A stretch of DNA of 64,000 bases from IMG/VR virus record IMGVR_UViG_3300032216_001891, positions 1-64,000 of that record. One strand, 5' to 3'. A program made the position numbers and the translations under genes. Of the stretch, positions 24,043-28,023 are shown in pieces. Every line of letters begins with the position of its first letter. Position 1 is the stretch's first letter. The notes beneath the pieces are model-generated. The model worked only from the letters and a program-made list of their open reading frames with translations. It was not told the origin of the DNA and searched no databases. This stretch comes from a virus. Its lineage: Duplodnaviria > Caudoviricetes.

Positions 24043-26904
24043 TTATGTACTAGCATAAAGAAGTTTTTGTGCTATGTCTCTTTGATCCATCAAGGTTTTC
24101 GCAATTACCTCCATAATTTCATATTGCTTGATTTGCCAAGCGTCAACTTCTTTTTGCTTGTCTATCTTGGTGGCATAGTCGCCCAAGGCTGCATCAACTT
24201 TTGATTTGGCACGGTCTGTTTCTGTTATTTGTTTCATCATATCGTTCAAACCAATCATTGGATTGGTAATATCTTTAAGTGCCAGGGAAAAATCTGCTGG
24301 ATTAAATTTTGTTACGGTGTCGGCTATTTGTGCTGTCATGTCGCGAGACATGTTTAAGGACATATCTTTAAAAGTACCAGACAATTCTTCTGGAGTAAAT
24401 TTAGTTCCTGTGGTGGCCATTTGTGCAGTTATGTTTTGAGACAGGTCCTTAAACATGTCTTTGAAAGTACTAGCTAGAGCCTCTGGGGTAAATTTAGTTC
24501 CTGCGGTGGCCATTTGTGTAGTTATGTCCCGAGACAAGTCCTTAAATGTGTCCTTAAACATGTCTTTAAGTGCAATGTTTTTAAGTGCAAGAGAAAAATT
24601 TTCTGGAGTAAGCGTTTTTGCTAAATCAATCATTTGTGCAGAGATGTCTTGCGACTGGGTCGCTTGTTGTTTTGACTGTGCTGTCGCTGATCCAATAAAC
24701 GTTGCTACCAAATCCAACATTTGTGCAGAGATGTCTTGTGACTGTGGTTTCAATTGTGTTGTTGACAATCCTGCACTGGCGTTGGAAAACTTGTCTATTA
24801 TTGCTTTGTATCCGTCTGTGCCCGTCTTTATTGTGCCATCTGCTTGCAATGGTAGTACCAGCTCATTGCCGTGTAACATAGATAAAAATCCAGTGGTTGG
24901 GCCCGATGCAATGCCACCGCCGTCAAATTGCGGAATATTGCTGAAATAGTCTGCGCCGGTTTGTTGCACATTTGCTTCTCCGGCTTTGTTGTATTTGTCA
25001 TTGGCCTTACTTTGACTTTCCGTCATCCCTATCTGGAAGAATTTTTGAAAGAATCCACCTCCTTCAAATGCTTTTTTATAGTCAGCCGCAGCTGTTGCCA
25101 ATTGTTTTCTATTTTCCTCATCGCCGGGTTTCGCTGTAAGACTTGCTACATCAAACCCACTGTTGATAAATTTAATGGCTTTGTCAAATGCTTCTGCAGT
25201 TGCGTCTGCTGTTCTTTTTAATATTTCCCCGTACTCTTCTAAATGCTCTCCAGCCAGTTCTTCCATTCGTACTGCATTGTCCTGCATTGTTTTTGTTATA
25301 CTTGCAAAATTTGATTCAAGGCTGTTGGCACTTGCAGCCAATTTGGCCTGTGCATCCGATGCATCCTTAGATGCTTGCGTTGTACCTTCTTCAAGTTTGG
25401 CACCTGCCATTATTAATGAATTGTTAAGAGTGCTCACAGCTTGCAATTGACCATCGCCACTGAGCCTTCCGGCCATAGCAAGTGTTCTTGTATCTTCTAA
25501 ATGTTCTCTAGCATACTTTCCTGTCTGTTCGGTTAGTTTTCCGGACTCAATTAGTGCATCTTGTTGTTTTTTGTTTGCATCGCCCAGCGTTTCGTACTGC
25601 TGGCGATACTGTTCCATAATTTTAGGATTTTGTGTAATGGCTACGTTGGTTGCTGCATCGGCGATAGCAGTTCCGCCGGTACTAACAAACTCCATATAGC
25701 CCTTTTTCATAGCTTCCGGCATTGTAGCCAATTGTGCTTGTAATTTTTTTACAGCTTCGGGACCACCCTTGGCATAAGCTTCGGCCATTAAATCGGCTTC
25801 CATGGCTTGTGCCTTAGCTTTTTCCATTAATTTTTTAGCATCTTCACCAGTGATGTCGCTGATAATTTTTAAATTTTGTGCATATTCTCTAGCACCGCGG
25901 GCAAGTTCTGCAGGAGCAATATTTTTCAAATTTTCGCCAGCACTGCGTTGTTGTGCCATGTACTGAGCCATAATTTCGCCCTGCTCTTGATAATTATAAC
26001 CCAAAGCCAACATCTCGTTGCGTAAACTAGCACCACTCTTTCCTATAGTGTCCTTTGCAGACAACATGCCTTTGGCCAAAACTTTTACTGCATCGCCTTG
26101 GCTCAATCCCGATTCTCTCAGTTCTTGTCTAGAATTTTTTGCAGCATCTTGCAACAATGTTAAACTCAACCCAGCATCGTTTGCTATTGTACGCATTTCC
26201 AACATACCGTTGGCAAAACTGGCACCTTGCTTGGTATACACGTCCAGTGCTGTGGCAGACTTTTGAAACTCCTTGGCCATTACATCATTGGCTGTGTGTA
26301 GCACTGCGGCGGCTAGATCTGCCATGCCCTTGGTAGCAGCAGCAGCGGCATCACCTAGCCCAGAAATTATAGGTCCAACGATTGGGATTCCACCAAATGC
26401 ATGTGCTACTCCTGCACTGGCATCCGCTGCACCTTTTACAGCAGTGTTGGCCATGCTAATAAAGGTGTTTACCTGTCCTGCAGCGGCTCCTATGGGGTTT
26501 TTGGCCATTTCGTCATAGGAGGTGGCCATTTGTACGCCAAGGCCGATAACACTTTTGCCCAAGCTGCCTATGGTTCCGGTTATGGCACTAACTGCTTGCA
26601 CACCGCCCAGTAACGCCCGTTCAAACTTCAGTTGTGACAAGGCCACTTCACGTTCGGCCGCTAGTGCTTTTTTCTGTTCTTTAGTAAGTCCTGCTAGAGA
26701 TTTTTCATATTCATCGGCAGCTTTCTTTTGACTCTGGTAATCTTTTACCATGTTTTTAAAGATGCCTTGCGATGAATCTTGCTTTTTGGCATCTTTGCTG
26801 GACTTGTCCATTACTGCTAGGATTTTAGTCAAGGTTTCCTCAGAAGCTGCATTGGTAGCAACTACTTCGCCTACACCGGGTATGTTGATTTTTACATCTG
26901 CCAT
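24043..26904 (-). CDS. Tape measure protein
   Basis: 953 aa, Ala/Gln/Lys-rich and helical, with FDGGGIASGP..G....LHGNELVLP motif. Lies next to the tail-chaperone-like pair. Confidence 0.75.
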   Translation of the reverse strand: MADVKINIPGVGEVVATNAASEETLTKILAVMDKSSKDAKKQDSSQGIFKNMVKDYQSQKKAADEYEKSLAGLTKEQKKALAAEREVALSQLKFERALLGGVQAVSAITGTIGSLGKSVIGLGVQMATSYDEMAKNPIGAAAGQVNTFISMANTAVKGAADASAGVAHAFGGIPIVGPIISGLGDAAAAATKGMADLAAAVLHTANDVMAKEFQKSATALDVYTKQGASFANGMLEMRTIANDAGLSLTLLQDAAKNSRQELRESGLSQGDAVKVLAKGMLSAKDTIGKSGASLRNEMLALGYNYQEQGEIMAQYMAQQRSAGENLKNIAPAELARGAREYAQNLKIISDITGEDAKKLMEKAKAQAMEADLMAEAYAKGGPEAVKKLQAQLATMPEAMKKGYMEFVSTGGTAIADAATNVAITQNPKIMEQYRQQYETLGDANKKQQDALIESGKLTEQTGKYAREHLEDTRTLAMAGRLSGDGQLQAVSTLNNSLIMAGAKLEEGTTQASKDASDAQAKLAASANSLESNFASITKTMQDNAVRMEELAGEHLEEYGEILKRTADATAEAFDKAIKFINSGFDVASLTAKPGDEENRKQLATAAADYKKAFEGGGFFQKFFQIGMTESQSKANDKYNKAGEANVQQTGADYFSNIPQFDGGGIASGPTTGFLSMLHGNELVLPLQADGTIKTGTDGYKAIIDKFSNASAGLSTTQLKPQSQDISAQMLDLVATFIGSATAQSKQQATQSQDISAQMIDLAKTLTPENFSLALKNIALKDMFKDTFKDLSRDITTQMATAGTKFTPEALASTFKDMFKDLSQNITAQMATTGTKFTPEELSGTFKDMSLNMSRDMTAQIADTVTKFNPADFSLALKDITNPMIGLNDMMKQITETDRAKSKVDAALGDYATKIDKQKEVDAWQIKQYEIMEVIAKTLMDQRDIAQKLLYAST

Positions 26905-26915
26905 AGTTTTTTACG

Positions 26916-26941
26916 ATAAATAAACTTATACATCTATTTAT
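26916..26941. promoter_or_regulatory. Face-to-face late promoter pair (ATAAATA + at 26916-26922, ATAAATA - at 26935-26941)
   Basis: Both boxes lie in the 52-bp gap between the divergent TMP and gp26-like genes. Confidence 0.6.
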
Positions 26942-26956
26942 GGAGTTCAATTAACC

Positions 26957-27799
26957 ATGTCAAATCCCGCTAACAATCCTTTATCCGGTCATTTTAGGCA
27001 ACCGGCAATTTATTTAAAACTGCCCAGTCGCGGACGTTTTTATCCCAATAACACTATAGATTTACCAGTGACAGGAGAAATCCCTGTGTATCCCATGACT
27101 GTGCGTGACGAATTAACACTGAAAACCCCTGACGCATTGATGAACGGGGTGGGAATAATTAATGTTATTAAAAGTTGTTGTCCAAATATTCAAGATCCGT
27201 GGACCATGCCGGCAGTGGACTTGGATCCCGTTTTTATTGCCATACGTTTGGCCAGTTATGGTAAGGGCATGGACATCGATTGTATTTGTTCGCACTGCAA
27301 GGCCAACAACGAATACACAGTGGACTTGTCTGTGATACTGGATGGACTAGAGCAGGCCGATTATTCTACACCCGTGAAGATTGATGGATTGACATTTAAT
27401 TTCCGTCCACAGACTTACCAAGACATAAATCAAGCTGGACTTATAACCTACGAAGAACAACGTTTAGTTGATTCCATCATACTCAACGATGCCCTGAGTC
27501 AAGAAGAAAAAACAGCCCAATTCAATGCCAGCTTTGCAAAACTACAGCAAATGAATGTAGATTCAGTTACAGTAAGCATACACAGTATCGAAACCGAAGA
27601 TAACATTGTGGTAAAGGATCGCGAGCAAATCGCTGAATTTTTAAATCAGTGCAGTAGACAAGTGTACAACAGCATCAAAGATCATATACAGTCCCTAGTG
27701 GATACTTTTAAAGTAAAACCTTTGAAGATTATTTGTAGCGACTGCGAAAAAGAATTTGAAAACACACTAACATTTAATCAATCAAATTTTTTCGAATGA
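26957..27799 (+). CDS. gp26: Baseplate hub assembly/tail chaperone protein (T4 gp26-like)
   Basis: IYLKLPSRG, PMTVRDE, IAIRLASYG and two CxxC pairs (CSHC, CSDC). Ends NFFE. Confidence 0.8.
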   Translation: MSNPANNPLSGHFRQPAIYLKLPSRGRFYPNNTIDLPVTGEIPVYPMTVRDELTLKTPDALMNGVGIINVIKSCCPNIQDPWTMPAVDLDPVFIAIRLASYGKGMDIDCICSHCKANNEYTVDLSVILDGLEQADYSTPVKIDGLTFNFRPQTYQDINQAGLITYEEQRLVDSIILNDALSQEEKTAQFNASFAKLQQMNVDSVTVSIHSIETEDNIVVKDREQIAEFLNQCSRQVYNSIKDHIQSLVDTFKVKPLKIICSDCEKEFENTLTFNQSNFFE

Positions 27800-27869
27800 G
27801 GCTTTTGACTCTAACTACAGAAGAAATTTTTACGTGGTTGGATCAAATGGAACAGGAGTCAAAAGCCTT
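27787..27869 (+). promoter_or_regulatory. Programmed -1 ribosomal frameshift cassette (slippery T TTT TTC plus 13-bp stem)
   Basis: In-phase heptamer at 27787-27793 and perfect inverted repeat 27799-27811/27856-27868. The -1 frame is ORF 27796..28023. Confidence 0.7.
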
Positions 27870-28023
27870 GAGAGCCGAGCTGTTTAGTTTTTGTTGGTAC
27901 ATGCGTGGAGGTCTCACCTACAGCGAAGCCATGGAGCTGAGCTCCGAAGAACGACAGTTGATAGCCAAACTGATAAAAGAAAACATGGAAGTCACAAACA
28001 AATCGGGTATGCCATTCTTTTGA
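27796..28023 (+). CDS. gp51-like baseplate hub assembly protein, probably also the C-terminal part of a frameshift fusion
   Basis: WYMRGGLTYSEAMELSSEER motif, no SD, -1 frame relative to the gp26-like ORF. Confidence 0.7.
   Translation: MRLLTLTTEEIFTWLDQMEQESKALRAELFSFCWYMRGGLTYSEAMELSSEERQLIAKLIKENMEVTNKSGMPFF

Follow-up and report, generated by a model that had tools for sequence, protein, structure and literature searches.

Overlapping reading frames at a gp26-family gene

The window analysed in this study, a 64,000-nucleotide (nt) stretch of a Caudoviricetes virus (positions 1–64,000 of IMG/VR record IMGVR_UViG_3300032216_001891), contains a gene of the phage T4 gp26 family whose 3′ end overlaps a second open reading frame (ORF) in the -1 register, and the junction between the two carries the elements of a probable programmed -1 ribosomal frameshift site. 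The features of the junction and its large neighbour, numbered by position in the window, are as follows.

26957–27799, + strand: gp26-family gene in the 0 frame, 280 amino acids (aa); putative short chaperone form, the predicted equivalent of lambda G; matches Pfam PF12322 and PHROG 150
27787–27793, + strand: slippery heptamer T TTT TTC in X XXY YYZ phase, in phase in 172/172 related loci
27793–28023, + strand: -1 frame extension (the 'T' part) of 76 codons plus stop, counted from the heptamer C; RMRLLTL...GMPFF; includes ORF75, from the ATG at 27796
27794–27798, + strand: spacer of 5 nt to the perfect stem, comprising GAA, the final sense codon of the 0 frame, and the opening bases of the ATGA overlap
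27797–27812, + strand: 5′ arm of the long-range stem; perfect part AGGCTTTTGACTC at 27799–27811, conserved core GGCTTTTG at 27800–27807
27813–27839, + strand: inner helix stacked on the outer stem, AACTAC (27813–27818) with GTGGTT (27834–27839) in the minimum-energy fold
27855–27870, + strand: 3′ arm of the long-range stem; perfect part GAGTCAAAAGCCT at 27856–27868, conserved core CAAAAGCC at 27860–27867
24043–26904, - strand: 953-aa gene, candidate tape-measure protein and presumed chaperone client, as suggested by its size, repeats and conserved layout

The product of the 280-aa ORF scored 65 bits against PF12322 (T4_baseplate; cut-off 24.5; E 1.1e-17, residues 33–280) and matched PHROG 150, 'baseplate hub', so that the 'gp26-like' label given in a first-pass annotation of the window was borne out. 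The gene ends in AAT TTT TTC GAA TGA (TGA at 27797–27799), and ORF75 (27796–28023; 75 codons), in the -1 frame, overlaps this stop as ATGA; no purine-rich ribosome-binding site precedes its ATG in the window. Translation with a -1 step at the heptamer reads ...NFF-RMRLLT... and joins 279 + 76 residues into a predicted fusion of 355 aa, in agreement with the earlier proposal of a slip into a 75-aa ORF without a Shine-Dalgarno sequence and a product of about that length. The AlphaFold model of the 280-aa protein (predicted local distance difference test, pLDDT, 88.6) has a mixed alpha/beta fold with two CxxC pairs, and the model of the 76-aa part is a three-helix domain (pLDDT 92).

Downstream of the heptamer, 27799–27811 and 27856–27868 form a perfect 13-bp inverted repeat, the sole perfect repeat of at least 13 bp in the 64 kb whose arms stand within 120 nt of each other, and G·U pairs lengthen the stem to 16 bp (27797–27812 with 27855–27870). 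The first-pass annotation had placed the heptamer, its phase and the perfect stem at exactly these coordinates, and had named the G-U extension and the inner helix. Should the G·U extension form, the spacer would shorten to 3 nt; counted to the core stem present across the clade described below, it is 6 nt. This anatomy of an in-phase heptamer, a 3–6 nt spacer and a 13–16 bp stem fits the classic -1 frameshift cassette.

Conservation of the heptamer, the extension and the stem

The heptamer occurs 18 times in the window against 16.7 expected, that is, not above chance, and the minimum-energy fold of -28.1 kcal/mol has a modest z-score of -2.35 against shuffles of this single sequence; the case must therefore rest on comparison with relatives. 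The junction was compared in 172 loci, namely 82 IMG/VR loci besides the window with a long gp26 (L001, L008–L087 and L186; 41–86% identity), 10 records of nine cultured giant phages, and 80 cyanophage-type loci. Of the 82 long-gp26 loci, 72 are non-identical by junction to each other and to the window, the rest being duplicates or re-fetches (L001, L008, L186); the scan for this clade counted 568 relatives in all. The closest relatives in culture share about 30% identity and are the giant phages Phosso, Atu_ph07, PA5oct/Cassandra/MIJ3, the RaK2/121Q/PBECO4 group, XacN1, SCTP-2 and RsoM2USA.

The in-phase heptamer was TTTTTTC in 170 loci, including those of Atu_ph07, Phosso, Cassandra, PA5oct, RaK2, 121Q and SCTP-2, and TTTTTTT in two, RsoM2USA and XacN1, the former with a run of nine T (GTT TTT TTT TCC; locus L090, about 2262–2272). 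The C-terminal Phe-Phe is invariant in gp26-family alignments, and the codon before it in the long-gp26 clade was AAT, AGT, CAT, CGT, GAT, GCT or GTT; TCT and GGT were added by the cyanophage-type loci, still always ending in T. Codon use in 61 distinct proteins was uniform at both residues (F278, TTT in 61/61; F279, TTC in 61/61) and mixed at three other conserved Phe columns (49:12, 35:20 and 40:18). Since the wobble T is fixed while the residue varies, and since the F278 and F279 codons are uniform against mixed Phe columns elsewhere, the constraint at the heptamer works on nucleotides. Conservation of TTTTTT[CT] across gp26 homologues, which the first-pass annotation had proposed as a check, was found in all relatives with a -1 ORF, synonymous positions included, and the counter-case it had named, a Phe-Phe pair in non-slippery codons, was absent among the 172 loci; T4, with TTC TTT, has no downstream ORF. 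Inspection by eye revealed no Shine-Dalgarno-like stimulator upstream of the heptamer.

The -1 frame is open for 69–75 further codons in all long-gp26 relatives, and the 0-frame stop lies 3, 9, 12 or 18 nt 3′ of the heptamer across this clade. The -1 frame opens with a CGN (Arg) codon that does not vary in the alignment and lies 5′ of the window's ATG. An ATG at the junction is found in about a dozen loci only, with ATA at this place in most; no ATG, GTG or TTG occurs for 23–89 nt in L056, L066, L068, L069, L071, L073–L075, L079, L083, L086 and RaK2, and none occurs anywhere in the -1 ORF of Cassandra and PA5oct. Because its N-terminal part is conserved yet has no start codon, the -1 ORF, judged from these sequences, cannot be an independent gene and must be entered at the heptamer from the frame upstream. 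ORF75 had no credible match in Pfam or PHROGs, and tblastn with ORF75 returned Atu_ph07, Phosso and, weakly, XacN1 only. Among 77 candidates scored for a single ORF in which the 76-aa domain is already fused, none was found, which is weak evidence.

A core GGCUUUUG/CAAAAGCC stem lies 6 nt after the heptamer in the long-gp26 clade and is variably extended (57 non-identical sequences). In the alignment of these sequences, the 15-pair structure of the window was paired in 80.5% of cells, and in at most 60% when the 3′ partner was slid by 1–3 columns. The stem arms also encode the conserved residues RLL and KA, so conservation of the arms proves little, and the evidence lies in the paired changes and the slid controls. 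Compensatory changes, the second check proposed earlier, were found: 34 cells were changed on both sides against 13.7 ± 2.9 in shuffles, and none of 500 shuffles reached 34. Columns 18/83 are U-A in 47 sequences, C-G in eight and broken in two, and here a synonymous CTT to CTC change is paired with AAA to AGA. This U-A to C-G switch required at least six state changes on the gp26 protein tree, and the stem switches are thus not one inherited event. We conclude from these alignments that the stem covaries in the long-gp26 clade. The inner helix differs in sequence and position among relatives.

Distant lineages carry other stems at a similar spacing of 4–6 nt (XacN1 and L079, perfect stems of 11 and 10 bp, respectively, each with a 6-nt spacer; PA5oct, 9–11 bp), and a simple search found no stem in a few others. 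By eye, an 11-bp perfect hairpin (TCTCGTGATTA/TAATCACGAGA) follows the nine-T run of RsoM2USA, farther downstream than the other stems.

The cyanophage-type loci (L093–L172) share the site in another sequence context. NNT TTT TTC was found in 80/80 of them, preceded by AGT in 44, TCT in 27, GCT in six, AAT in two and GGT in one, and the -1 ORF of 60–68 aa is well conserved. In Synechococcus phage S-BM1, gp26 ends AGT TTT TTC GCG TAG, and the -1 ORF (locus L092, 3061–3252) is labelled 'T4-GC_12 gp51' and annotated from an internal ATG as 31 aa. The 0-frame stop, mostly UAG, stands exactly 3 nt after the heptamer in 80/80 cyanophage-type loci, and a stop fixed one codon after the heptamer may aid the slip in these loci, where no stem is detectable.

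T4 itself presents the alternative arrangement. Its gp26 ends GAG TTC TTT GAG TTA CTA TAA and runs into gene 25, with neither a heptamer nor a downstream ORF. PF12322 covers residues 1–201 of T4 gp51 (E 4e-52) and is followed by a 48-aa C-terminal extension, for which homology to the -1 ORF of the cyanophages was established (hhalign probability 94%, E 1.5e-7). A single PF12322 gene is present in each complete genome that has the signal (Atu_ph07, RaK2, PA5oct and S-BM1), whereas T4, without the signal, contains two. One gene with the signal against two without it suggests that the same protein pair is reached by two routes, either a slip within one gene or a short gene together with a long, already fused paralogue. 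Both T4 gp26 and T4 gp51 are on record as chaperones of hub assembly, and virions lack gp51 (PMC3004832). In one T4-like IMG/VR contig (L184), the frame of the gp51 homologue stops after 120 codons, though tblastn matched residues 1–247; this break may be a frameshift or an assembly error.

Competing readings of the junction

On the strength of these comparisons, we consider it very probable that the gp26-family gene makes a short and a long tail assembly chaperone by programmed -1 ribosomal frameshifting. Most ribosomes would stop at TGA (27797–27799) and release the 280-aa short form, and a minority would slip back one base on U UUU UUC (27787–27793) with both Phe tRNAs re-pairing, probably while paused by the long-range stem-loop that starts 3–6 nt downstream. 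Reading on through CGA AUG AGG... would yield the 355-aa long form with its 76-residue helical C-terminal domain. The pair would be a tail assembly chaperone that matches lambda G/GT in function and, as an orthologue in role, T4 gp26 for the short form and gp51 for the long one, and would probably act on the tape-measure protein and the tail tube in tail assembly. The ribosomal nature of the slip and its efficiency are deduced from the features of the junction, and we infer the chaperone role from family membership, T4 genetics and a study of 2022 as described by papers that cite it. The earlier suggestion that a gp26/gp51-like pair is this lineage's G/GT equivalent therefore appears well founded, given the conserved heptamer, the covarying stem, the start-less -1 ORFs and the already fused T4 paralogue gp51.

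Several observations weigh against this reading. No consensus structure was found downstream of the heptamer in 75 cyanophage-type sequences, so a stem is not universally required. Comparison of the ORF75 profile with T4 gp51 or the cyanophage -1 ORF was not significant (E 0.07–0.22), with the motif Y..M.LS..ER...KLI.K alone in register. The 'gp51-like' label of the 75-aa ORF accordingly held for position, frame and this weak motif and failed in the profile comparisons, and we describe the homology of the clade's ORF to gp51 as positional and make no statistical claim for it. The predicted N part did not lead back to a solved tail assembly chaperone fold in fold or profile searches: Foldseek with the gp26-like model gave no PDB match at E ≤ 0.001, with the HK97 chaperone (2ob9) at rank 49 (E 1.8, TM 0.35 on target); VIA-align wide gave generic helical-hairpin matches only (Z ≤ 7.9); and a profile search of PDB sequences gave nothing relevant. 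BLAST of the 953-aa protein against RaK2 ORF088 and T4 gp29 was not significant. The surveyed sequences share kinship, and raw counts thus overstate their independence. The 355-aa product is predicted from the gene sequence, and the window's own ORF75 starts with an ATG in the ATGA overlap, at which some free 75-aa protein may be made by reinitiation besides the frameshift.

Transcriptional slippage, in which RNA polymerase would add an extra U at the T6 run and a minority of mRNAs would encode the fusion in one frame, is the strongest competitor and, in our judgement, an improbable one. The site is a homopolymer run, which in RsoM2USA reaches T9 and makes slippage a realistic explanation for that phage, and no conserved structure follows the heptamer in the cyanophage clade. 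The run is nevertheless held at six by a conserved C in 170/172 loci, though a longer run would favour slippage; on the other hand, the C that caps the T6 run is also needed for the Arg codon of the -1 frame. Efficient slippage by bacterial RNA polymerase usually needs about 8–9 T or more, for which six T are short. The covarying stem 3–6 nt downstream is a hallmark of ribosomal frameshifting and has no known role in polymerase slippage, because the run is copied before the stem has been transcribed.

Translational coupling alone would have ribosomes stop at TGA and reinitiate at the AUG of the ATGA overlap to make a free 75-aa protein, with the hairpin blocking independent initiation and no fusion formed. 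The ATGA overlap without a ribosome-binding site in the window, repeated in about a dozen relatives, is as this reading expects, and a stem at the start codon would tie downstream translation to upstream ribosomes. We nonetheless find it very unlikely, as most relatives have ATA or another non-start codon at this place, several have no start for 23–89 nt, and Cassandra and PA5oct have none in the ORF. It also leaves unexplained the NNT TTT TTC invariant at synonymous sites and the invariant Arg codon 5′ of the ATG, and it is evident from T4 gp51 and the cyanophage ORF that the extension functions in fused form. In the window, frameshifting and coupling may occur side by side; coupling cannot be the general mechanism.

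Coincidence, in which the heptamer encodes the family's C-terminal Phe-Phe, the stem reflects amino acids and the two genes are independent, is scarcely credible: Phe-Phe is conserved even in T4 gp26, which has no frameshift, TTTTTTC is at chance frequency in the window, and the arms encode conserved RLL and KA, but the Phe-Phe codons and the preceding wobble base are invariant only where the -1 ORF follows, paired substitutions, including the synonymous CTT to CTC matched by AAA to AGA, keep the stem, and the downstream ORF has no start in most relatives.

Genomic setting, annotation and comparison with known systems

The source record is a 154-kb fragment, estimated to be 44% complete, in which a T4-type portal gene and the divergent 953-aa gene lie upstream of the gp26-family gene. 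By eye, an ATAAATA motif at 26921–26931, about 25 nt 5′ of the gp26-like start, resembles the T4 late-promoter TATAAATA, and GGAG stands at 26942–26945, also 5′ of that start. The two CxxC pairs of the gp26-like protein (C111/C114 and C260/C263) are invariant in its alignments, which suggests a four-cysteine zinc site; we know of no metal site described in tail assembly chaperones. T4 gp51 gave weak matches to zinc-ribbon families in Pfam in the same region as the CxxC pairs.

A large divergent neighbour is kept in 7/9 cultured relatives (Phosso, Cassandra, RaK2, 121Q, PA5oct, SCTP-2 and RsoM2USA) and absent in Atu_ph07 and XacN1. The RaK2 neighbour is annotated as tape-measure-like, and that of PA5oct has been found in virions. 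The 953-aa protein itself had no Pfam or PHROG match, and it is plausible that it is the tape measure. The 953-aa gene contains tandem peptide repeats (DMFKD...ITAQMAT.GTKFTPE; for example at 24346–24460), also seen as a 27-nt imperfect inverted repeat.

The long chaperone form, or joined product, is missing from 9/9 cultured giant-phage records, and in 5/9 the -1 ORF is unannotated or present only as a fragment. In Atu_ph07 (L002, 4837–5067) only a 40-aa piece from an internal ATG is annotated, and the -1 ORF is wholly unannotated in RaK2 (L005, 2328–2543), Cassandra and PA5oct (L004 and L088) and RsoM2USA (L090).

Two papers (PMC10885494, PMC12846349) credit Vladimirov, Gautam and Davidson (Virology 2022; 566:9–15) with identifying the tail assembly chaperones of T4-like phages, and according to these citing papers poly-T -1 slip sites occur in the N-terminal chaperone genes of such phages; in some, a short gene and a longer fused gene are described in place of frameshifting (PMC10885494). 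The remark in the first-pass annotation that a G/GT-type frameshift was undescribed for T4-like phages thus does not stand, as both papers credit the 2022 study, and by their account this kind of system has been known since then (PMC10885494, PMC12846349). What may be new is the membership of the giant-phage clade, the mis-annotated records and the covarying long-range stem. More specifically, and tentatively, a chaperone pair made by frameshift beyond the T4-like phages proper, across the whole RaK2/PA5oct/Atu_ph07/XacN1 giant-phage radiation and many uncultured freshwater relatives, could be unreported, its fusion having been missed in the inspected records; the slip would be driven there by a lineage-specific covarying long-range stem-loop without a cyanophage counterpart, and genomes with the ATGA overlap could add a free 75-aa domain by reinitiation as a third product.

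With this reading, a gene essential to tail assembly would have its annotation corrected across a large giant-phage group, including phages studied for therapy or biocontrol such as RaK2, K64-1, 121Q, PA5oct, Atu_ph07 and XacN1. It would also place a single gene with a ribosome slip side by side with two paralogous genes, as in T4, for the same protein pair. The same heptamer, accompanied by a covarying stem in one clade and by no detectable stem in the other, makes a clean natural test set for recoding research, which could show how far a U UUU UUC site depends on a stimulator.

The N part shares its Pfam family, PF12322, with T4 gp26/gp51, and in both systems the short and long forms have an N-terminal domain in common. 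The gp51 C-terminal extension is homologous to the -1 ORF of cyanophage-type relatives, and a poly-T slip site is attributed to T4-like chaperones by the citing papers (PMC10885494, PMC12846349). T4 differs in having two divergent paralogous genes and the non-slippery TTC TTT, whereas the window phage would use one gene for both forms. The window phage has an N part about 70 residues longer than T4 gp26, a 76-aa extension not detectably similar to gp51, and a covarying long-range stem after the heptamer. The S-BM1 'gp51' (T4-GC_12) corresponds in position, frame and heptamer; in S-BM1 and the other cyanophages, however, the extension is of another sequence family (its profile comparison with the clade's ORF75 was not significant), no consensus downstream structure was found, and the distance from heptamer to stop is invariably 3 nt.

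Like E. coli dnaX-type sites, the junction has an X XXY YYZ heptamer followed, after a short spacer, by a stable stem-loop. It differs in that no upstream Shine-Dalgarno-like stimulator was seen, the 0-frame stop follows one codon after the site, and the stem is a long-range one whose loop, of about 42 nt, holds a second helix.

A tail-chaperone frameshift is reportedly conserved among long-tailed phages (Xu, Hendrix and Duda, Mol Cell 2004). The lambda G/GT heptamer is G GGA AAG and thus differs from that of the window, the searches revealed no resemblance to solved chaperones in fold or sequence, the gene is divergent from the tape-measure candidate and not just upstream of it, and the N part carries a four-cysteine motif. 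As in lambda G/GT, a -1 slip close to where the short ORF ends would give a minor long form with an added C-terminal domain, and the gene adjoins a very large candidate tape-measure gene.

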